DNA of 58,555 bases, taken from the NCBI GenBank assembly GCA_017463445.1, contig JAFTPF010000117.1:1-58555 (forward strand), read 5' to 3'. Position 1 is the first letter of the stretch. Each line of letters starts with the position of its first letter. Positions 4,022-58,289 of this stretch are shown here, piece by piece. The notes under the pieces are model-generated. The model was not told the origin of the DNA. It did not search any database and worked only from the letters and a program-made list of their open reading frames with translations. This stretch comes from Clostridia bacterium (GTDB taxonomy: Bacteria > Bacillota > Clostridia > Oscillospirales > CAG-272). Both the position numbers and the translations under genes were made by a program.

Positions 4022-4130
4022 AGGGTGTCCTCCTTTGGGAAATTTTGAATCAGTTTATTGTATCATATTATTCTATCTTTGTCAATGAATTTGCGGAAAA
4101 TGGGGGATGAAGTTTTTGCGGTTTTCAATA

Positions 4131-4162
4131 GAAAAACTCCCCTTTCCCGGATGGGAAAGGGG
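4131..4162 (-). terminator. Intrinsic terminator of lipoprotein paralogue A
   Basis: CCCCTTTCCC-GGAT-GGGAAAGGGG hairpin with T-run on the minus strand; a near-identical hairpin lies at ~4770-4794 after paralogue B. Confidence 0.6.
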
Positions 4163-4186
4163 AAGATTCACCAGTGCGAGTTCACA

Positions 4187-4747
4187 TTAGCCTTTAACGT
4201 AATCCCATTCATCGGAATCATAGATTCTGGGGTATTCGGCTTTATAGGCTTCCCAAACCGTGCGAAGCTCTTCCTCGGTGAGAACACCTGCGGAATACGC
4301 GCCTTGCAGAGAGTAGGAACGACCGTTTTCGAATACTGTCAGTTTAGTGGTATCGGTGTAGCGGAACTCGTAGCCTTCGACTGTATCCTTAGATAGCATC
4401 GGAGCGACAGTAATAGTACCGTCCTTTCTGCATCCCAGATAGAAGCAGATGTAGGCGTTATCAGATTGAACGTAAAACGATCCGACCATCAAATTGTTGA
4501 TCGTAAGTTCTTCGCCCACCGTATCTTTTACAGCAGCCCAAACGCTGTTCAAAAGGGCAACGCGGTCTGCGCTTGCATCCGGATTGGTGAGCGTATCCCG
4601 GCTAACGGTAGTTACGGTGCCAATGGTAACAGGGGGAGTGGTTGCATTCGTGCCGAGCGTATTGCCTGTGTCGGCGGTGTCGGCACATCCCGCCAACAAC
4701 ATCGCGGCGAGGGCAAGCAGGGTGAGGGTTCGTGCGAGGTGTTTCAT
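4187..4747 (-). CDS. Lipoprotein of unknown function, paralogue A
   Basis: 186 aa; signal peptide with lipobox LLAGC; tandem paralogue of 4836..5363. Confidence 0.6.
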   Translation of the reverse strand: MKHLARTLTLLALAAMLLAGCADTADTGNTLGTNATTPPVTIGTVTTVSRDTLTNPDASADRVALLNSVWAAVKDTVGEELTINNLMVGSFYVQSDNAYICFYLGCRKDGTITVAPMLSKDTVEGYEFRYTDTTKLTVFENGRSYSLQGAYSAGVLTEEELRTVWEAYKAEYPRIYDSDEWDYVKG

Positions 4748-4835: not shown

Positions 4836-5363
4836 CTATTCATCGGAATCATATAATCCGGGGTATTCGGCTTTATAGGCTTCCCAAACCGTGCGAAGCT
4901 CTTCCTCGGTGAGAACACCTGCGGAATACGCGCCTTGCAGAGAGTAGGAACGACCGTTTTCGAATACTGTCAGTTTAGTGGTATCGGAATAGTAGAACTC
5001 ATAGCCTTCTACCGTGTCTTGGGTCTCCATTGGGCTGGAAAGGATCAGATTATCCTTTCTGCATCCCCTATAAAAGCAAACGTAGGCGTTGCCACATTGA
5101 ACGTAAAACGATCCGACCGACAAATTGTTAATCGTAAGTTCTTCGTCCACCGTATCTTTTACAGTAGCCCAAACGCTGTTCAGAAGGGCAACGCGTTCCT
5201 CACTCAAATTGGGTTTGGTCAGCGTATCCCGGTCAACGGTAGTAACAGCAGTCGTGGTTGCATTCGTACCGAGCGTGTTGCCCGTATCGGCGGTATCGGC
5301 ACACGAGACCGCGAGCGCTCCGATCACCAATACTAACAGTATGCTGATCATTCGTTTTTTCAT
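4836..5363 (-). CDS. Lipoprotein of unknown function, paralogue B (ends at TAG aligned with Trp of paralogue A)
   Basis: 175 aa; signal peptide/lipobox AVSC; C-terminal half almost identical at nucleotide level to paralogue A. Confidence 0.6.
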   Translation of the reverse strand: MKKRMISILLVLVIGALAVSCADTADTGNTLGTNATTTAVTTVDRDTLTKPNLSEERVALLNSVWATVKDTVDEELTINNLSVGSFYVQCGNAYVCFYRGCRKDNLILSSPMETQDTVEGYEFYYSDTTKLTVFENGRSYSLQGAYSAGVLTEEELRTVWEAYKAEYPGLYDSDE

Positions 5364-5393
5364 AATTGTATCTCCTTATATCAATATTATAAC

Positions 5394-7169
5394 TTAGTCG
5401 ATTTGGCACCATGCAACACTATACCATGTTTCAGTACTGATATTTCTGAGATTGTCGATAAATATTGAATAAGTGCCTGTTGTAGATGGAGTAAATTCTA
5501 ATATTTTGATATTCCCCAAATAACTACTTGCTGTTTGTGCATGGTAAACGCCGCTTCGATAGACAGCCAAATTGACTCTGGGGGCTGTCGTAGAGGTTGT
5601 CACTTCGGTTGAATGGTTATAAATCGCGTCGCGCAAAGCAACTACGACAATTCGCACAGGCTTACCGGCTTCTAGATCAATCGTAAACGACTCGCGGGCA
5701 CCTGAAGTGTTCGCATTAAACCCGCCATCATTATTATATTGCGTGCTTAGCATAGCATTGTACACGTTCAAACAATCTAAAATACCGGCACCGTACCGTT
5801 CATATCCGTTAGTAGAATTAAGAGGCCATGTTACGTATCGATTGAACGAGGTGCTTACGTTAGCCGCTAATATTGCTTTTATAGTATCTGGATAATGGGT
5901 CAAATTGGGTTTTTGCTGTAGCAATAACGCTACCGCACCTGTTACCATTGGAGCTGCCAAACTGGTTCCATCAACAGCATAAGACATACCCTCTGGTTGA
6001 ATATTGACTCCAGGAGCACTTATATCCGGACGAGAACCTTCTGCAAAGGTTATATGCGTATAACTGGATTTAGAGTAAATTGCGCCATTCACATCAACTG
6101 CCCCTACAACGATAGCATTGTATGATAGATTGCCAACAAATACTTCGCCAGGAGCAGAAACGCCGTTATTTCCTACACTAAATACTATGCTGACAAGATG
6201 ATTCAGTGCAATATGATCAAACCATGCCGTGTTTGAATCGTAGATGTTTGTAACAGCGTTCCCGTTCTCATCTTCATAACTGATGCTCATACTAATATTT
6301 ATTACATTCACTCCCTGATCAATCAGCCATTCGATTGCTGGAATGTAGCCTGAAGTTGCATGCGCTGCATACAATTGTGCATCTGGTGCAACTGATTTGG
6401 CTGTATAAGCAACGAATGAAGCATGGCCTGCATATAAATAATTCACGGATGCATCTGCTGTAGCAATGTTATAACAATGATTTGCTGTTAGTCCAAGCGC
6501 ATCTCTCTCAGTATAAAACGGCAACTCGGTTTCCAAAATACCTATCTTAATTCCTTGCCCGGTATATCCATTTTCATGCACATCATCAGCATTGATCATA
6601 CCTAAATAATCAATGCCCGCCGTCGTGGACGCAGTCTCCGCCAATGGTGCCGCCAGCGGCTCCTCCTCCGCCAGCTCCATATCATACAACTCAATGCTCT
6701 CCACAGCTCCGTTCAGCGCCAGCTGATTGGTTTCCACACTGTCGAGGCTGGCGATGATGACGGGAGAATACTTGCTGATATACTCCACCTTGCCGTCCAG
6801 ATACTTTTCGGCAAAGGCGGTGTTCTGCGCCAAATATGCTTCGCGTGAGGCGGCGCGGCGTGCCATAATGTCGGCTTGCACCGCTTCGATCTCAGCTTGG
6901 TTTTCATACTCCTCTGCGGCAGAGGAAAGAGTCAGGGCGGCGGGCTGGGTCTCGGGCAGACCCCGTTCCACCGCGCCGTGGTCAATGTCTTTGATGAACA
7001 CCATCACTGATTGCTCTGTGCCGCTCTCCTCAGTATAAGCGGCGGTGAGACTGTCTCCGATGACACGGTCACGGATCACGGCTACCTGCATCTCGGCGGC
7101 AGACAGGGCGGGCAACCCCAACAGGGCTGCGAGGATGAACACGGAAAGTGTACGCGCGAGCTTTTTCAT
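5394..7169 (-). CDS. Secreted subtilisin-like S8 serine peptidase
   Basis: 591 aa; signal peptide; GTSLAAPMVTGAVALLL (Ser motif), AGHASFVA (His motif), SVGNNG (oxyanion Asn); GIKIGILETE lies where the Asp motif is expected. Confidence 0.8.
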   Translation of the reverse strand: MKKLARTLSVFILAALLGLPALSAAEMQVAVIRDRVIGDSLTAAYTEESGTEQSVMVFIKDIDHGAVERGLPETQPAALTLSSAAEEYENQAEIEAVQADIMARRAASREAYLAQNTAFAEKYLDGKVEYISKYSPVIIASLDSVETNQLALNGAVESIELYDMELAEEEPLAAPLAETASTTAGIDYLGMINADDVHENGYTGQGIKIGILETELPFYTERDALGLTANHCYNIATADASVNYLYAGHASFVAYTAKSVAPDAQLYAAHATSGYIPAIEWLIDQGVNVINISMSISYEDENGNAVTNIYDSNTAWFDHIALNHLVSIVFSVGNNGVSAPGEVFVGNLSYNAIVVGAVDVNGAIYSKSSYTHITFAEGSRPDISAPGVNIQPEGMSYAVDGTSLAAPMVTGAVALLLQQKPNLTHYPDTIKAILAANVSTSFNRYVTWPLNSTNGYERYGAGILDCLNVYNAMLSTQYNNDGGFNANTSGARESFTIDLEAGKPVRIVVVALRDAIYNHSTEVTTSTTAPRVNLAVYRSGVYHAQTASSYLGNIKILEFTPSTTGTYSIFIDNLRNISTETWYSVAWCQID

Positions 7170-7368
7170 AGATTTACCTCCTTGCGGTATTATTTTTCTT
7201 GCTCTTTTGACGTTTGTTCACTTCTTTCTTCTAATCGGCAAGAGCATTGCCCATTGGACTCACCTCCCCCAAGTTATATTTACTATATATAACAAATCAG
7301 GAGGTGTAAATATTACAGCATTTTAGCAGGATTCACAAAATGTTTACAAAATTTGCAGTTCTCCGCGC

Positions 7369-7422
7369 AAAAAACGCAGAGATGCCGACGGATTGGGGAT
7401 TGCCTACCGTCTGCGCCTCTGC
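7369..7422 (-). terminator. Intrinsic terminator (strongest on minus strand)
   Basis: GCAGAGGCGCAGACGG-N15-CCGTCGGCATCTCTGC (2 mismatches) followed by GTTTTTTGCG on the minus strand. Confidence 0.6.
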
Positions 7423-7476
7423 GCTGTTTCTTTGCTCTGATCGGTGACTGTTCCCAACGCGGTCAGATTCTTTCTG
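7369..7476 (-). ncRNA. Candidate small RNA (~105 nt), family unknown
   Basis: Bounded by minus-strand TTGACA-17-TGcTATACT promoter and a 16-bp hairpin + GTTTTTT terminator; no ATG and no RBS-preceded ORF inside. Confidence 0.45.
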
Positions 7477-7481
7477 TTACC

Positions 7482-7510
7482 AGTATAGCAGGTTTTCATT
7501 ATATTGTCAA
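7482..7510 (-). promoter_or_regulatory. Consensus sigma-A promoter with no downstream ORF
   Basis: Minus strand: TTGACA (7510-7505), 17-nt spacer, TGc-TATACT (7487-7482). Confidence 0.6.
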
Positions 7511-7585
7511 GACTTTTTTGGAATATTTTTACTAATAATTTCAGAAAAGCATAGATCGCAAAGCAAAAAAGAACAAAAGTTCGAA

Positions 7586-7633
7586 AGTTGCAACAAATTG
7601 CAACTGTTTCATACGGTTTTGCTGTGTTATACT
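7586..7633 (+). promoter_or_regulatory. Perfect palindrome (operator-like) plus extended -10 promoter of the head module
   Basis: AGTTGCAA-CAAA-TTGCAACT at 7586-7605; TGtTATACT at 7625-7633; the palindrome abuts the -35 position. Confidence 0.45.
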
Positions 7634-7691
7634 TTGCTCACAGCCAAGGGAAATCCCCAAAACTGATGAAAAACGAAAGGAGAGGATCCAA

Positions 7692-8072
7692 ATGGAATCC
7701 ATTCACACCGAAAACGCCGTTTTCGAAACCGAGGCGGTATTCCGCCGAAAGCTCAAAAGCTACATCAAGCATTGCAACAAGCAGGGCGAGGACGAAAAGA
7801 CCCGCCGTCTGCCCAACGCCGCAGGCTTCTGCCGCTTCTGCGAGATCTCCCGCGAGGGCTTTGCAAGGCTGAAGGTCACCTACCCGCTGATGTACGACAT
7901 CGCACAGTCCACCTTCCTGGACGAAGCGCTGAACACCAAGATGTCCAACTCGGCGGCGAACATGTCCTTCCTGGCAGAGTTCAACCGCTCGGTGGGCGAG
8001 GAGCAGGAGGAGGAGCCGGGCGGCGACACCGTCCGCCTCATCACCTGCCACGATGATGGCGACGCGCTCTAA
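7692..8072 (+). CDS. Putative terminase small subunit
   Basis: 126 aa; HTH-like PNAAGFCRFCEISREGF typical of small terminases; overlaps TerL start by 20 nt; strong RBS AAAGGAGAGG. Confidence 0.55.
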   Translation: MESIHTENAVFETEAVFRRKLKSYIKHCNKQGEDEKTRRLPNAAGFCRFCEISREGFARLKVTYPLMYDIAQSTFLDEALNTKMSNSAANMSFLAEFNRSVGEEQEEEPGGDTVRLITCHDDGDAL

Positions 8073-9390
8073 GAAAAAGTCCCGTGAGGTGGTGGTGCGG
8101 CTTGAGGGAAAGCCCTCCGAAAAGCAGGCGCAGTTTTTCGCCTCCCGTGCCCGTTACACCGCTTACGGCGGCGCACGCGGGGGAGGGAAGTCCTGGGCGC
8201 TGCGGCGCAAGCTGATCCTGCTCTGCTTTCGCTATCCCGGTATCACCTGCATCTTAGTGCGCTGCTCCCTGCCCGAGCTGAGAGAGAACCACCTATTTCC
8301 GCTCCTCTCTCAGCTGGGGGACGCGGTGGTCTACAAGGAGTCCACGCACACCTTCACCTTCCCCGGCGGCAGCCGCATCGTGCTGGGGTACTGCGACAAC
8401 GAGCGAGACGTGCTCCGCTATCAGGGACAGGAGTACGACATCATCGCGCTGGACGAAGCCACCCAATTGACCGAGTTTCAGTTTTCCACCTTCAAAGCCT
8501 GTCTGAGAGGCGCAAACAGCTTTCCAAAACGGATCTACCTCACCTGCAATCCCGGCGGGGTGGGTCATGCCTGGGTGAAGCGTTTATTCGTCGATCGGCT
8601 CTTCCGCCAGGGAGAGGATCCTGCCGACTACGCCTTCATCCCTGCGGGGGTGTATGACAATCAAGTGCTTCTGGAAAAGGATCCCGGTTATGTGGCTGGC
8701 TTGCAGTCTCTGCCCGATACCCTGAGGCGAGCGTGGCTGGACGGTAGCTGGGACGTGTTCGAGGGGCAGTTCTTTCCCGAATTTTCCCGTACGCGGCACG
8801 TCTGTGAGCCATTCGAGATCCCGAAGAACTGGAGACGGTTCGGCGGACTGGATTATGGCTTCGATATGCTGGCGGCACTGTGGGCGGCAGAAGATCCCTC
8901 CGACGGGACTGTCTACGTCTATCGGGAGTTTGGCAGGTCGGGGCTGACCCTTACCGCCGCCGCCAAAGCGGTTGCCGAGGCGGGATGCGGTGCGGAGGAA
9001 GCAGACTATTTTGCCGCCTCGCCCGATTTGTGGAACCGCCGTCAGGACACGGGGCTGGCGGGGGTGACGGTGATGAGTGGCGTGGCAGGCTTCCCCACGC
9101 TGATCAAAGCCGATGACCGTCGGGTGATGGGCTGGCGCAATCTGCGGGAGTATCTTTGCGGGGAGGAAGGACGGAGACCGCGACTCCTGATCTTCTCTAC
9201 CTGCACCGAGCTGATCCGCACCCTGCCCGCCCTGCTCCACGATAAGCACCGTCCCGAGGACGCCTCCTCTGAGCCTCACGCAGTCACTCACTTTCCCGAA
9301 GCACTGCGCTACGCTCTGATGGCGGTACCTGTAGGCGACGGCCGCGTGGACCGCACCCGCGATCCTCACGGCGGGATCTTGCGGTGCTGA
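8053..9390 (+). CDS. Terminase large subunit (PBSX/Terminase_3-like)
   Basis: 445 aa; Walker A YGGARGGGKSW, Walker B YDIIALDEA, C-terminal nuclease motifs (GLDYG, EALRY) intact. Confidence 0.9.
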   Translation: MMATRSKKKSREVVVRLEGKPSEKQAQFFASRARYTAYGGARGGGKSWALRRKLILLCFRYPGITCILVRCSLPELRENHLFPLLSQLGDAVVYKESTHTFTFPGGSRIVLGYCDNERDVLRYQGQEYDIIALDEATQLTEFQFSTFKACLRGANSFPKRIYLTCNPGGVGHAWVKRLFVDRLFRQGEDPADYAFIPAGVYDNQVLLEKDPGYVAGLQSLPDTLRRAWLDGSWDVFEGQFFPEFSRTRHVCEPFEIPKNWRRFGGLDYGFDMLAALWAAEDPSDGTVYVYREFGRSGLTLTAAAKAVAEAGCGAEEADYFAASPDLWNRRQDTGLAGVTVMSGVAGFPTLIKADDRRVMGWRNLREYLCGEEGRRPRLLIFSTCTELIRTLPALLHDKHRPEDASSEPHAVTHFPEALRYALMAVPVGDGRVDRTRDPHGGILRC

Positions 9391-9439
9391 TCCTCTCCGA
9401 TTTCCCTTGGCTGATGAAATCGATGAGAGGAGGGTCACC

Positions 9440-9589
9440 GTGACCGAGATTGTTCTGACTCTTGCCGTTGGCGGGGCGGCAGGGCTGGCGGTGGGAATTG
9501 CCGTCGGGTTGTGGATCGGCAGGATACGCCGCAGGCGGCAACGCCTATCATCCACCGCCGACAGCTTTCTGAAGCTGCTGAGACATTAG
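9440..9589 (+). CDS. Small single-pass membrane protein
   Basis: GTG at 9440 preceded by AGGAGG; hydrophobic segment IVLTLAVGGAAGLAVGIAVGLWI then RIRRRRQR; the track start at 9407 (TTG) is less likely. Confidence 0.35.
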   Translation: MTEIVLTLAVGGAAGLAVGIAVGLWIGRIRRRRQRLSSTADSFLKLLRH

Positions 9590-9639
9590 ACGGGGACGGC
9601 GCGCCCTCCCCGAAACAACTGAAATGAAAGGAATTTGGT

Positions 9640-11193
9640 ATGAAACATCAAAAATTGACCACTGCCTGGAAGCAGTACGAGGAGGGGCGGGCGTACAAGC
9701 GTACCGTCGGTCTCTACCGCCGTGTGGATGAGAACGAACGGTTCTACCGCGGCGACCAATGGAAGGGCGTGGACGCAGGCGGTCTGCCCACCCCCGTCTT
9801 CAATCTCATCAAGCGCATCGGATCCTATCTGATCAGCGCGGTGCTTAGCTACAAGCTGACCGTCCGCTACGACGATATGGGCATCCCCTACGCCGACCCC
9901 AGCGACGCAATCCGCAAAAGGGAAGCGACGCTGGAGGCACTCAACCGCGTTACCGCCTGCCGCTGGAAGCAGAGCGGGATGGATACCGTCCTGCGCCGTG
10001 CACTCTACGACGCGATCCTCTCGGGAGACGGCATCTTCTACTGTTGTTTTGATCCCACCCTCCCCGGTGCGGGAGACTTTGCCGGAGACATCCGAACCAC
10101 TACGCTGGACAGCGTGAATTTGTTTGCAGCGGATATGAACTCCGACGATATCCAACACCAGGAATGGCTGATCCTGTCCGGCCGCGCTTCGGTAGATATG
10201 CTTCGCCGCGAGGCAGCCGCCGCCGGTCTGCCCGCCGATCAGGCGGACAGGATCCGCCCCGACCGGGATTACGACGACGGTGCGGGAGATTTTGCTTCCT
10301 ACGAGACAGGCGACAAGGCGACCTATCTGATCCGCTTTTATCGCGACGACGAAGGCTTCGTCTGCTGGGAAAAGTGTACCCGCGAGACGGTCATTCGCGC
10401 GGTTCGCACCGGGATGCGCCGTTATCCCATTGCCATGTTCCATTGGGACACGGTGAAGAACAGCTTCCATGGCTCATCTCCCATCACCGAGCTGATCCAA
10501 AATCAGAAGTACGTCAACAAGGCGTACGCGATGGTGATGAAGCACATGGTAGATACGGCGTTCTCCAAGGTTATCTACGACAAGCGACTGATCCCCGAGT
10601 GGACCAACGAGGTGGGCGAGGCGATTGGCGTGCTCTCGGGCGGCGACGTGTCAAACGTTGCCACCACGCTGGGGGTAGGCGAGATGCAGGATGGCTACCG
10701 CGAGCTGATCGATTCGGTGATAGAGAACACGAAAGAGCTGACCGGTGCCACCGAGATCGTGCTGGGTGAAGCGGATCCCAACAATACCTCCGCCATCATC
10801 GCCCTGCGCGAGATGGCAGAGGTGCCGCTGGATCAGGTACGGGCGAGCATTGCCGCCTGTATGGAAGAGCTGGCACTGATCTGGCTGGAGATGATGCGGG
10901 AGTATTTCCCCGACATCCGCAGTTATGCGGATGGGGAGGGTGTGGTCTGCCTGGATCTGGCGTGCCTGCCTGCCGATTCGGTAAACGCCTACGTGGACAG
11001 CGGTGCCAGCAGACGGTTCTCCCAGTCGATGCTGCTTTCCACTCTGCAGAGCCTGCTGGATGCGGGACATATCACCTTTGCCGAGTATCTGGAGCGTCTG
11101 CCTGAGGGCGTCCTCACCGATAAGGACAAGCTGCTTGCTCGCGCCAGAGGGGATCTTGCCGACGCAGACGTAGGGGGGGACGCCAATGGATGA
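9640..11193 (+). CDS. Phage portal protein
   Basis: 517 aa; position after TerL; N-terminal ERFYRGDQW motif typical of SPP1-type portals. Confidence 0.8.
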   Translation: MKHQKLTTAWKQYEEGRAYKRTVGLYRRVDENERFYRGDQWKGVDAGGLPTPVFNLIKRIGSYLISAVLSYKLTVRYDDMGIPYADPSDAIRKREATLEALNRVTACRWKQSGMDTVLRRALYDAILSGDGIFYCCFDPTLPGAGDFAGDIRTTTLDSVNLFAADMNSDDIQHQEWLILSGRASVDMLRREAAAAGLPADQADRIRPDRDYDDGAGDFASYETGDKATYLIRFYRDDEGFVCWEKCTRETVIRAVRTGMRRYPIAMFHWDTVKNSFHGSSPITELIQNQKYVNKAYAMVMKHMVDTAFSKVIYDKRLIPEWTNEVGEAIGVLSGGDVSNVATTLGVGEMQDGYRELIDSVIENTKELTGATEIVLGEADPNNTSAIIALREMAEVPLDQVRASIAACMEELALIWLEMMREYFPDIRSYADGEGVVCLDLACLPADSVNAYVDSGASRRFSQSMLLSTLQSLLDAGHITFAEYLERLPEGVLTDKDKLLARARGDLADADVGGDANG

Positions 11194-11548
11194 GCATCGC
11201 CCCGTTCTCACTGTACCGGAGCAGCAAGATGAGCGGATGGCTTTTAACGAAGCGTATCCCGATGTTTCCTGGGACTCGGTTCCGGACGCGGTGAAGGAAA
11301 ACGCCCGTCTGAAAGAGATCCCCGTGGCTGCTGCCTACTGCCTTCACCTCCAGCGGAGGGAACAGGCGAAAAAGACCGCCGCATCTGCGTATCAGCGAGC
11401 TGTGGCAGAATCTCCGGGCGTCCCTGTGGGTGCCTTGGGAGAAAGACTGTATTCTATCGACGAGATGCGAGAAATGACCTCCAAAGAGGTCAAGAGTCGC
11501 TATCACACCCTGCTTGCCAGTCTCAAACGGGGCTTTTCCAAATGGTGA
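11186..11548 (+). CDS. Scaffold-like/minor head protein
   Basis: 120 aa; overlaps portal stop; position between portal and capsid genes; helical charged C-terminus. Confidence 0.4.
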   Translation: MDEHRPVLTVPEQQDERMAFNEAYPDVSWDSVPDAVKENARLKEIPVAAAYCLHLQRREQAKKTAASAYQRAVAESPGVPVGALGERLYSIDEMREMTSKEVKSRYHTLLASLKRGFSKW

Positions 11549-11589
11549 GCAGGCAAACGAATTCATATTAAAAAAGGAGAATTTATATT

Positions 11590-12414
11590 ATGGCAACTAA
11601 AAACTTTATTCCTACCGTTTGGAGCGAAACTTTGCTCCAGTCCCTTGATAAGGAGTACGTAGCGGTCATGAACTGCAACCGCTCCTTTGAGGGCGAGATC
11701 CGCAATCTGGGCGACAGCGTTGTGATCAATTCCATCGGTCCCATCAGTGTGTTCGACTACACCGCCGATACCGATATGAACGCCCCTGAAGCACTGGCAG
11801 AGGGCACCTCCGTCAACCTGAACATCGACCGCGCCAAGGCCTTCTGCTTCCAGATCGACGACGTGGACCGCGTACAGGCAAAGCCCGATCTGATGAAGAC
11901 CGCCATGAAAGAAGCGGCGTGCGCTCTTGCGGAAGAGGCGGACAAGTACATTTACTCCCTCTACTCCAAGTGCCCCAGAGAAAATTCGATCACTCTGTCC
12001 GGCATCAGCGCCGACAACATCGTGGATCTTGTGATCGAGGCAAGAGAGATCCTGATGAAGAACAATGTCAACAGTAACACGGAAGTGGTTCTGGAGGTAT
12101 CTCCCACCATTGCGGCGCAGATCCTCAAAGCCAAGATCCTGACCGGCACCGACAACACCTCCGCTCTGAACAACGGCTACCTGGGCAGCTTCGTAGGCTT
12201 TGACGTTTACGTATCCAATAACATTTCGGAAGACGGCGGAATCTATCATTGCATGGCTCGTACCAAGCGTGCGGTCGCCTTTGCGGAGCAGCTGAAGAGC
12301 GTCGAGGCGTTCCGTCCCGAAAAGCGTTTTGCCGACGCGGTGAAGGGTCTCCATCTGTACGGTGCGGAGCTGATCTACCCCAACGAGATGGTGGTTCTGA
12401 ACCTGTCCTTATAA
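11590..12414 (+). CDS. Major capsid protein candidate
   Basis: 274 aa; strongest RBS of the module (AAAGGAGA); N-terminus NFIPTVWSETLL...GDSVVIN resembles small Firmicute-phage capsid proteins; follows scaffold-like gene. Confidence 0.65.
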   Translation: MATKNFIPTVWSETLLQSLDKEYVAVMNCNRSFEGEIRNLGDSVVINSIGPISVFDYTADTDMNAPEALAEGTSVNLNIDRAKAFCFQIDDVDRVQAKPDLMKTAMKEAACALAEEADKYIYSLYSKCPRENSITLSGISADNIVDLVIEAREILMKNNVNSNTEVVLEVSPTIAAQILKAKILTGTDNTSALNNGYLGSFVGFDVYVSNNISEDGGIYHCMARTKRAVAFAEQLKSVEAFRPEKRFADAVKGLHLYGAELIYPNEMVVLNLSL

Positions 12415-12433
12415 CAGAAAGTAGGCGAGCACA

Positions 12434-12937
12434 GTGAAAAACGCTGAGGTTTTGCGGATGGCGGAAGCCTTACTGACTCCTGCCGTCCAGGTGAGCAGCT
12501 CGTCCTCGTCATCCTCGTCTACTACTCCCGATGACGGAGCTACCGAGGAAGGGGACAACACCATCGATCAGCTCTCGCTGGTAACGGTTACTACTCCCAT
12601 CGACGGTGCGTCGGGTACGGCGGCGTCTACTACCATCGTGACGGTGGCGGTGGACGATCCCCGAATCAAGGAGCGGCTCCGCATCCTGCTGGAGACCACC
12701 GTACGCCTGCTTTACCCCAAGGGGTTGCTGGCAGGAGTATCCCTGCCCGTGCCTGCGTACCCGTTGGTGGGAGAGGGCGAGTTTCCTCTTCCCGATGGTC
12801 TGGCGGCTGCCGCGGCGTATCACACGGCGTGGCTGCTGACCGGCGAGACTAGGCTGGCGACTGCCTTTGATGAGGCGATGGAGATCTATTACGCTTCGCT
12901 GGAAGCGTGCGTAGCACCGATCGTCCGAAAGCATTGA
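12434..12937 (+). CDS. Head-tail connector/adaptor-like protein with Ser/Thr-rich N-terminal region
   Basis: 167 aa (GTG 12434; alternative ATG 12458); position after capsid gene; SSSSSSSSSTT tract. Confidence 0.4.
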   Translation: MKNAEVLRMAEALLTPAVQVSSSSSSSSSTTPDDGATEEGDNTIDQLSLVTVTTPIDGASGTAASTTIVTVAVDDPRIKERLRILLETTVRLLYPKGLLAGVSLPVPAYPLVGEGEFPLPDGLAAAAAYHTAWLLTGETRLATAFDEAMEIYYASLEACVAPIVRKH

Positions 12938-15545: not shown

Positions 15546-15687
15546 CCTTTCTGCGTAATTTCATACTGTCTATCATTGTAGCACATTACGGATCGGCTGT
15601 CAACCGAAGGCAGGGAAAAGCCGTAGGATTTTTGTATATTTTTGCTCGGAAATAGTTGTAAAAATCACAGATTTTCTACCGCCAGCC

Positions 15688-19789: not shown

Positions 19790-19818
19790 TTGACAAACGG
19801 AAAGAGATATGGTATCAT
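19790..19818 (+). promoter_or_regulatory. Sigma-A promoter of tRNA cluster
   Basis: TTGACA-17-TGgTATCAT, 16 nt upstream of tRNA-Gly. Confidence 0.7.
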
Positions 19819-19833
19819 ACTAAAGCACCAAAT

Positions 19834-19907
<74 letters not shown>

Positions 19908-19934
19908 ATTTTTTCAGCCTCGGCTGAAAAATCC

Positions 19935-20011
19935 GCTTCCGTAGCTCAGCTGGATAGAGCAACTGCCTTCTAAGCAGTAGGTCGGGGGTTCGAGTCCCTC
20001 CGGGGGCGCCA
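19935..20011 (+). tRNA. tRNA-Arg (anticodon TCT)
   Basis: TAGCTCAGCTGGATAGAGC D-arm; anticodon loop CTTCTAA; acceptor with two G-U pairs; encoded CCA. Confidence 0.85.
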
Positions 20012-20016
20012 ATTCA

Positions 20017-20126
<110 letters not shown>

Positions 20127-27944: not shown

Positions 27945-27973
27945 ATTATAGCACACAATCAAATGATTGTCAA
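27945..27973 (-). promoter_or_regulatory. Consensus sigma-A promoter of the SPFH operon
   Basis: Minus strand TTGACA-17-TATAAT. Confidence 0.65.
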
Positions 27974-35388: not shown

Positions 35389-35417
35389 TTGACAAATTCG
35401 CTTAATTGTGGTAAAGT
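35389..35417 (+). promoter_or_regulatory. Sigma-A promoter of the DUF4965 gene
   Basis: TTGACA-17-TGgTAAAGT. Confidence 0.55.
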
Positions 35418-37917: not shown

Positions 37918-37946
37918 TTGACAAGCATCACGATTTGTGGTAAACT
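37918..37946 (+). promoter_or_regulatory. Sigma-A promoter of rpmG-secE-nusG
   Basis: TTGACA-17-TGgTAAACT. Confidence 0.6.
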
Positions 37947-50761: not shown

Positions 50762-50790
50762 TTGACAAGCGGCATCGTTTGTGCTATTAT
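50762..50790 (+). promoter_or_regulatory. Sigma-A promoter of tRNA-Arg
   Basis: TTGACA-17-TGcTATTAT. Confidence 0.7.
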
Positions 50791-50807: not shown

Positions 50808-50883
50808 GCGCCCTTAGCTCAGCGGATAGAGTGCCCGGCTACGAACCGGTAGGTCAGAGGTTCGAATCCTCTAGGGCGCGCCA
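50808..50883 (+). tRNA. tRNA-Arg (anticodon ACG)
   Basis: GCGCCCT acceptor, TAGCTCAGCGGATAGAG D-arm, loop CTACGAA, GGTTCGAATCC T-loop, encoded CCA. Confidence 0.85.
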
Positions 50884-51434: not shown

Positions 51435-51463
51435 TTGACAGATCCCGCAAATTATGGTATAGT
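51435..51463 (+). promoter_or_regulatory. Sigma-A promoter of the GH38 gene
   Basis: TTGACA-17-TGgTATAGT. Confidence 0.6.
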
Positions 51464-58122: not shown

Positions 58123-58289
58123 TGGAATCTCCTCCTAATACGGGATCATCTGCGAATCCCTATGTGATGAGTCTATTATATCATATTTTACATAAAAACG
58201 GGGAAGAAAAACGGCAGAAGTTTGTTAATATTTTGTGAATGCAAGGAATGGACGCTTCCTGAATAGCCCCTATGAGATCGTCGTTGGTA

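Follow-up and report, generated by a model that had tools for sequence, protein, structure and literature searches.

A short, structured and terminated RNA beside a head-only capsid cluster of uncultured Clostridia: a possible leader of a variable lipoprotein and secreted-enzyme cassette

What role could be played by a transcription unit of ~105 nt that is devoid of open reading frames and is placed back-to-back with a set of phage-type head genes? The question is raised by the minus strand of the window (the whole analysed stretch of 58,555 nt from an uncultured Clostridia bacterium), where an earlier note, made from the letters alone, had described an 'orphan' promoter followed by an intrinsic terminator, and had proposed that a unit occupying the place of a phage repressor or switch gene could encode an RNA regulator of the head module. 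Here we follow the unit through its relatives, its predicted structure and its genomic surroundings, and argue that it is possibly the terminated leader of the genes that lie downstream of it.

Promoter, terminator and predicted transcript

7482-7510, minus strand: promoter P1 (-35 TTGACA at 7510-7505, 17-nt spacer ending in TGc, -10 TATACT at 7487-7482)
7375-7424, minus strand: terminator hairpin with 9+2+5 = 16 pairs (-27.1 kcal/mol, z = -5.0, 0 of 200 shuffles as stable)
7369-7374, minus strand: T6 tract ending the short transcript

The near-perfect sigma-A promoter that had been described on this strand was recovered as TTGACA-17-TGcTATACT (11/12 plus an extended -10); it is the top promoter-like site of positions 5000-10500 in the promoter scan, and its -35 and -10 elements are invariant in the alignments of five homologous loci. 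The pattern TTGACA-N14-TGnTAnnnT is present in 9 copies in the 58.5-kb window (0 in 100 shuffles), and its placed copies lie directly upstream of tRNA genes (19790, 50762), mgsA (4085) and uxaC (15603), which is why we regard it as a strong housekeeping promoter type here. Besides P1, the set comprises eight promoters (4057-4085, 15575-15603, 19790-19818, 27945-27973, 35389-35417, 37918-37946, 50762-50790 and 51435-51463) and offers a useful promoter model for this uncultured lineage; the tRNA genes of the window (a cluster of three at 19834-20123 and a single one at 50808-50880, all on the plus strand) are found, group by group, downstream of a consensus promoter. The distance between the P1 -35 and the extended -10 of the divergent terS promoter (TGtTATACT, 7625-7633, plus strand) amounts to ~118 bp, in agreement with the ~130 bp given previously.

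The 16-bp hairpin and T tract expected about 100 nt further on were likewise found (7424-7375 and 7374-7369), the hairpin having been missed by a simple terminator scan because its stem is long and bulged; each of the five homologues has a U-rich tract after its hairpin. P1 and the hairpin/T6 pair thus have, in silico, the features of a sigma-A promoter and intrinsic terminator unit, from which an RNA of ~105 nt (~7477 to ~7369; 105-117 nt) with a fold z of -4.0 is predicted; a search for RNA-seq runs retrieved none. Neither ATG nor GTG occurs in this transcript, and no frame on either strand is open through all five homologues (every frame is stopped in some homologue; anchor distances of 92, 86, 81, 89 and 83 nt, and a 1-nt indel within the conserved 5' domain of locus L151), so that the interval is free of a conserved ORF, as had been claimed from the window alone. 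A small-protein reading, based on a 31-aa ORF at 7499-7404 whose ATG lies inside the P1 spacer, was rejected on account of the broken homologue frames. The transcript overlaps no gene, the start of terS being at 7692 on the opposite strand.

The covariance-model scan against Rfam 15 retrieved, at gathering thresholds, only four tRNAs in the window and no family on the RNA; at E <= 10 on 7100-7750, chance miRNA/RT-6 fragments appeared far below threshold and none of them on the RNA, and a BLAST of the unit against annotated phages gave no match. The earlier impression that the unit belongs to no recognised ncRNA family is hereby upheld.

Head module and its predicted operator

7692-8072, plus strand: terS
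8053-9390, plus strand: terL
9640-11193, plus strand: P22-type portal gene, followed by a 120-aa ORF
11590-12414, plus strand: HK97-type major capsid protein gene, followed by a 167-aa ORF; the cluster extends over 7692-12937
7570-7583, strand not assigned: LexA-type operator CGAACTTTTGTTCT (minus-strand reading), between P1 and the terS promoter

The six genes of the head cluster are succeeded directly by housekeeping genes (a GFO/IDH/MocA oxidoreductase, a glucuronate isomerase and a PTS transporter), and no tail, lysis, integrase or repressor genes are found among the six, hence we consider the module a head-only cluster in a bacterial chromosome and not a prophage equipped with an immunity region. 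The cluster occupies a constant chromosomal position, as a rule next to mgsA/rarA, in 25+ genomes of uncultured Clostridia (L004-L028, L151-L160), whose terS identities fall as low as 45-50%. It has the appearance of a vertically inherited, domesticated element (GTA-like or capsid-only), and not that of a decaying prophage.

The predicted operator between the two promoters is a LexA-type (Cheo) box, a CGAAC-N4-GTTCG palindrome at a fixed position, which recurs in ~24 of 31 related loci at 102-174 nt upstream of terS; the box of the window comes close to the LexA consensus, CGAACATATGTTCG, and the SPbeta yolD operator is identical to it (PMC8270828). Its presence suggests that the head cluster, the divergent promoter or the two together are under SOS control. 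Since this box is the element common to most loci next to terS, the repressor of the module is likely the chromosomal LexA, encoded elsewhere, and with it falls the argument that the RNA occupies the repressor position of a phage: what had been taken for a phage switch region is a fixed chromosomal site between housekeeping genes with a shared LexA-type operator. Adjoining the box (~7587-7606) we noted a partly conserved repeat, GTTGCAAC-AAA-TTGCAAC.

Cargo genes between the RNA and mgsA

5394-7169, minus strand: secreted S8 protease gene
4836-5363, minus strand: first lipoprotein gene
4187-4747, minus strand: second lipoprotein gene
4137-4164, minus strand: terminator ending the cassette
4057-4085, minus strand: promoter of mgsA/rarA (TTGACA-17-TACAAT), orthologous to the promoter facing terS in L155 and L160

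All genes from 7169 to 4187 are encoded on the strand of the RNA, the two lipoproteins being tandem paralogues (~180 aa, 73-80% identical), and are followed on the same strand by mgsA/rarA (4021-2786) and a GH5 enzyme. The mgsA promoter (CAAATTcATTGACAAA...ATATGrTACAAT) is kept in the window, L151, L005, L007 and L008; the possibility that P1 is a displaced mgsA promoter was rejected, as mgsA retains its own orthologous one. Given that this same promoter faces terS in L155 and L160, the cassette is an insertion that came to separate the terS control region from the mgsA promoter. As judged from the sequence, the inserted cassette would consist of P1, the leader, the cargo genes and the terminator, with P1 as its putative promoter. 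The description of P1 as an orphan was not borne out: it heads the same-strand S8 protease/lipoprotein cassette, and in L007/L159 a lipoprotein gene is under the direct control of the P1 homologue.

The cargo differs among genomes:

L005 3229-5704: 502-aa secreted protein and 316-aa lipoprotein
L151 4599-5498: 299-aa lipoprotein
L157 1642-2202: 186-aa lipoprotein
L007 and L008: unrelated lipoproteins

The cargo of the window is non-homologous to that of L005, L151 and L157. As it is preceded by a conserved leader block (see below), the RNA can be regarded as the opening segment of a regulatory front end that stays fixed while the cargo is swapped; and as it is bounded by the conserved leader and a conserved terminator, the slot constitutes a hypervariable surface-protein locus. 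Among genomes, the terS-mgsA slot was seen to hold the S8 protease, the 502-aa secreted protein and three unrelated lipoprotein families. The same intergenic region also takes palindromic/tandem repeat insertions (L005 ~6010-6300, L157 ~2530-2790, L154 1-200), and repeat elements are found upstream of mgsA in L011, L014 and L017; the inserted repeats (GGGAACGGTCTTGACCGTTCC-type repeats of ~100 bp and GAAAACCCTTTTTCAAAAAGGGTTTTC hairpin arrays) look REP/MITE-like and aimed at this spot.

Distribution of the RNA

Homologues were sought through an aligned terS series: a scan of GTDB species representatives yielded 25 loci (MAGs of uncultured Clostridia, Oscillospiraceae and Lachnospiraceae from animal and human guts), exact-protein look-ups added ten, and three contigs with identical terS were uninformative, their whole intergenic region being identical. 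Besides the window, the RNA unit was present in four loci, namely L004 (terS 96% identical), L005 (91%), L151 (88%) and L157 with its duplicate L158 (87%); in L152/L153 (90%) the contig stops at the P1 -10. It was encountered only where terS is at least 87% identical, and is absent at 85, 84, 83, 77 and 74% and from all more distant loci. A neighbour-joining tree of terL groups the RNA-bearing loci in a single shallow clade, with L007/L159 as its sister.

The loci without the RNA show what its place looks like otherwise. L007/L159 (terS 85% and 84%) have the P1 homologue and the first ~20 transcribed nt, with a lipoprotein start codon ~65 nt on; in L155 (83%) and L160 (77%) the mgsA promoter directly faces terS; in L008 (74%) a promoter drives another lipoprotein; and in L009-L022 and L025 mgsA lies opposite terS, the two being separated in some cases by palindromic repeat elements. 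Thus, more than 20 loci carry the head module and lack the RNA, and the conservation beside similar head modules, by which the regulatory proposal was to be judged, is confined to a single shallow clade, an outcome that the earlier note had itself listed as refuting.

Searches of wider collections returned no further homologue: in metagenome contigs the pattern CTGACCG-N9-13-GTCACCGATCAG had at least 120 matches, of which those listed were all chance occurrences in GC-rich coding DNA, and a nhmmer profile of the full unit detected no homologue among them. In viral contigs the same pattern gave two chance matches only and a terS profile found one distant locus, which is without the RNA; DNA contigs of related runs, compared against the region, contained fragments only and no usable new variant. 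One faecal-virome record of 9.6 kb, in which terL is 53% identical, was set aside as an ordinary phage fragment (with a different terS) that does not belong to this module.

RNA structure and covariation between loops

7436-7467, minus strand: 5' domain, a weak hairpin UCUGACCGCGUUGGGAACAGUCACCGAUCAGA with loop GUUGGG at 7458-7453 (-6 kcal/mol alone, z = 0.2)

The flanks of the 5' hairpin, CUGACCG and UCACCGAUCAGA, are invariant in all five homologues. Mean pairwise identity is 85% in the 5' domain, 53% in the terminator region and 81% at terS third codon positions. The lower stem of the terminator (GCGCAGAG/CUCUGCGC) is kept in four loci; in L004, L005 and L151 the sequence of the upper stem and loop is replaced by another that preserves the pairing, and L157 has a different hairpin at this position. 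CCCAAU (7397-7392) in the terminator loop is complementary to the loop of the 5' hairpin, and this complementarity is found, with covariation, in every one of the five loci:

Window: 5' loop GUUGGG, terminator loop CCCAAU
L005: 5' loop GUUGGG, terminator loop CCCAAC
L004: 5' loop ACUUGG, terminator loop CCAAGU
L151: 5' loop GCAUUUGG, terminator loop CCAAAUGC
L157: 5' loop GCUUGG, terminator loop CCACGU (one mismatch)

In the loop-loop alignment 86% of cells are paired (25-49% with the partner slid), and three pairs show double-sided changes, the covariation score being matched by 3 of 500 shuffles; with n = 5 related sequences from one shallow clade, these statistics are suggestive and do not amount to proof. 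The duplex of each 5' arm with its own partner averages -18.5 kcal/mol (-13.3 for non-cognate partners), the cognate assignment ties for the best among 120 permutations, and in L151 and L157 the arm duplex reaches -23.7 kcal/mol (p <= 0.002 against shuffled arms). Compensatory changes that keep base pairs, as seen here in five related sequences, are what a structured RNA would display, and the fact that the loop complementarity is kept in the fastest-evolving segment (53% identity) argues for selection on the pairing. We therefore regard the ~105-nt unit, with start and stop as predicted, as a real structured non-coding RNA of no known family.

Two structural readings accommodate the covariation. 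In the first, which would be thermodynamically favoured, both hairpins are formed and touch in a kissing contact. In the second, which also fits, the 5' arm, which in four loci can pair with the terminator's loop and upper 3' strand, would take that upper 3' strand as well, giving an extended helix that could act as a kinetic antiterminator. As the alternative pairing of the window falls far short of the stability of the terminator (~-14 and -27 kcal/mol, respectively), antitermination would need kinetics or a factor; in L157, moreover, the best complement of the 5' arm is located 3' of the U tract, a poor fit to the extended helix.

The leader block downstream of the terminator

7332-7348, minus strand: WalR-box-like direct repeat TGTAAA-N5-TGTGAA, just 3' of the terminator
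7282-7310, minus strand: candidate second promoter P2, TTTACA-17-TATAGT (10/12 in the promoter scan)
7231-7270, minus strand: strong ribosome-binding site GGGGGAGGTG and a short upstream ORF (ATG 7254 to TAG 7231, MGNALAD), from sequence and alignments

In the RNA-bearing clade ~280 bp of regulatory sequence separate P1 from the first cargo gene. The leader block is conserved from P1 to GGAGGTGAnnCCnATGGG (7266-7249 in the window), an element in the upstream ORF region that is kept in all five loci, and homology between loci stops just beyond it. The WalR-like repeat is conserved in the five loci as well (TTTGTAAACAAATTGTAAA): with respect to the consensus TGTWAH-N5-TGTWAH (PMC9210968) the window copy has one deviation, and L004, L151 and L157 have a perfect TGTAAA-N5-TGTAAA. 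Two such repeats occur in the window (0.09 expected), the other being TGTTAA-N5-TGTGAA at 58223-58239 on the plus strand, near the window end. A WalR-type promoter would be plausible for secreted proteases, wall-hydrolase-like proteins and lipoproteins. P2 is predicted to be weaker than P1, and its -10 block (ATATATAGTA) is conserved in 4 of the 5 loci. The start of the upstream ORF is conserved (MG[E/N]...) and its length varies (7, 15, 31 and ~60 codons): it reads MGNALAD in the window and MGECEVEQFQENKIT in L151, has 31 codons in L157 and is longer in L005. As it is located 3' of the terminator, it cannot control that terminator. The L157 version overlaps the start of the lipoprotein gene, an arrangement that may point to translational coupling.

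Functional interpretation

Of the readings considered, we favour, with a probability of roughly 0.45, the one in which the RNA is the terminated 5' leader (an attenuator/insulator, or a gate before a second regulated promoter) of the variable lipoprotein/secreted-enzyme cassette. P1 would be the promoter of the cassette, and the leader would be divergent from the head module without being a module gene; most P1 transcripts would end at 7369, and expression of the cargo would depend on conditional read-through, on P2, or on both, and read-through could come about if the 5' arm CUGACCGnnUUGG paired further, as far as the terminator's upper 3' strand. The layout of the unit, its conservation, the covariation and the phyletic distribution are shown by the sequences; regulated termination, the nature of its signal and the activity of P2 are points that we infer. 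This leader reading is favoured by the homology of P1, with the initial ~20 nt of its transcript, to an mRNA promoter in L007/L159, by the position of the mgsA promoter downstream of the cassette-ending terminator (with cargo exclusively on the RNA strand), by the conserved leader block ahead of non-homologous cargo, by the quality of promoter and terminator, by the recurrence of the unit in five distinct copies, by the covarying pairing of 5' arm and partner in the fastest-evolving segment, and by a WalR-like box that is rare by chance, together with the predicted P2. Weighing against it are the small sample (five sequences from one shallow clade), a 5' domain (85%) no better conserved than terS third codon positions (81%), an alternative pairing much weaker than the terminator, the strongest arm complement of L157, which lies 3' of the U tract, unlike in a simple antiterminator, and the circumstance that no ligand, protein partner or known leader class was matched (Rfam yielded no known aptamer).

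The first gene is separated from the terminator by ~200 nt, with a plausible promoter of its own, so that a functional link of the short RNA to the cargo may be absent. In the second-ranked explanation, which we hold to be rather unlikely, P1 and the terminator would form the complete gene of a free-standing, trans-acting sRNA compacted by its kissing loops. Its invariant stretch CACCGAUCAGA or its GGA-containing loop would bind a protein or mRNAs from other parts of the genome, and the cargo would be driven only by P2. A promoter of the tRNA-gene type, a strong terminator and the lack of an ORF are what it calls for; the loop-loop covariation is compatible with simultaneous hairpins (the thermodynamically favoured picture), the promoter region 3' of the terminator is conserved, and the invariant flanks suggest sequence-specific recognition. 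Against this, the RNA is single-copy and limited to a very shallow clade, P1 is homologous to an mRNA promoter in sister genomes, and neither the start regions of the module (duplexes at background level) nor the 58-kb window contained a conserved seed with conserved target sites; the complements of CACCGAUCAGA in the window all fall within coding regions, and no target was found.

A somewhat lower credence still is given to the explanation that the RNA is a functionless by-product: a regulated front end made up of terminator, WalR-like box, P2 and upstream ORF would have been placed behind an older, constitutive P1, with its terminator serving as a passive insulator that blocks P1. In sister genomes P1 is joined directly to the lipoprotein gene, so that a 5' UTR seems to have been interrupted by the ~280-bp block; repeat-element insertions and cargo swaps are concentrated in this region, and the 5' domain is conserved no more than synonymous sites are. 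It is hard to reconcile with this that P1 keeps its full consensus in all five lineages, where it would be useless, and that compensatory changes keep the 5' loop complementary to that of the terminator within a segment that evolves fast, which would be unexpected for a junk transcript.

A far bolder proposal, which we consider a long shot, is that the RNA represents a new compact class of regulatory RNA (two hairpins with a covarying loop-loop contact, behind a tRNA-type promoter) that would gate the hypervariable surface-lipoprotein/secreted-enzyme slot and link surface proteins to the GTA-like particle activity of the adjoining domesticated, LexA-box-bearing, head-only capsid module. Last in rank, and very improbable, comes the role with which the enquiry started, that of an RNA regulator acting on the terS leader or operon of the head module (by analogy with phage immunity and antisense RNAs): the unit is divergent from the terS promoter at ~118 bp and, in the five genomes possessing it, accompanies the module, but it is missing from most genomes with the module (more than 20, including close relatives with 74-85% identical terS), has no antisense overlap with any module gene, shows no above-background complementarity to the terS leader or to the -70..+30 regions of terS, terL, portal, capsid and small ORFs (5' domain z of -2.5 to +2.2, at sites inconsistent between loci), and the conserved operator beside terS is of the LexA type.

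By itself, the small RNA would be one more clade-restricted leader or sRNA of uncultured gut Clostridia, useful for annotation, and a clean case of two covarying hairpin loops in a short terminated transcript. The larger value resides in its context: a tail-less, integrase-less cluster of six genes with a LexA-type box, fixed by mgsA/rarA in many Clostridia, which, together with the fast-swapping lipoprotein cassette wedged before mgsA, may merit study more than the RNA does.

Comparison with known systems

The immunity RNAs of phages and satellites (P4 CI, P1/P7 c4, lambda oop, P22 sar) either lie antisense to the transcripts under their control or arise from these by processing, and they are conserved with their element. 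The RNA described here resembles them in being small, non-coding and close to a phage-type regulatory region; unlike them, it overlaps nothing, has no complementarity to the module and is missing from most module copies. The 6S RNA of lambda (PR'-tR') stems from a strong constitutive promoter whose transcript is normally halted at a nearby terminator, until antitermination by Q. The two systems share a strong promoter, a terminator close by and the neighbourhood of head genes, whereas in our case the RNA is directed away from the head genes, a Q-like gene is lacking and the downstream genes encode lipoproteins and a protease.

Trans-acting small RNAs of Gram-positive bacteria with C-rich loops are represented by the RsaE/RoxS type, with which the RNA has in common a length of ~100 nt, a sigma-A promoter of its own, a Rho-independent terminator, the lack of an ORF and a C-rich loop (AUCCCCAAU). 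It differs from them in showing no sequence or Rfam similarity and no target in the regions searched; furthermore, since its C-rich loop covaries with the G-rich loop of the same RNA, the loop looks occupied intramolecularly.

The remaining comparison is with the transcription-attenuation leaders of Firmicutes (riboswitch, T-box and protein-dependent ones). The RNA departs from these in that it matches no Rfam leader or riboswitch, has an alternative pairing much weaker than its terminator, is separated from the first gene by ~200 nt with a second promoter and an upstream ORF, and is restricted to one shallow clade. It has in common with them that a strong promoter is followed by ~100 nt of structured leader free of ORFs, that an intrinsic terminator lies ahead of same-strand genes, and that an upstream segment is able to pair with part of that terminator.
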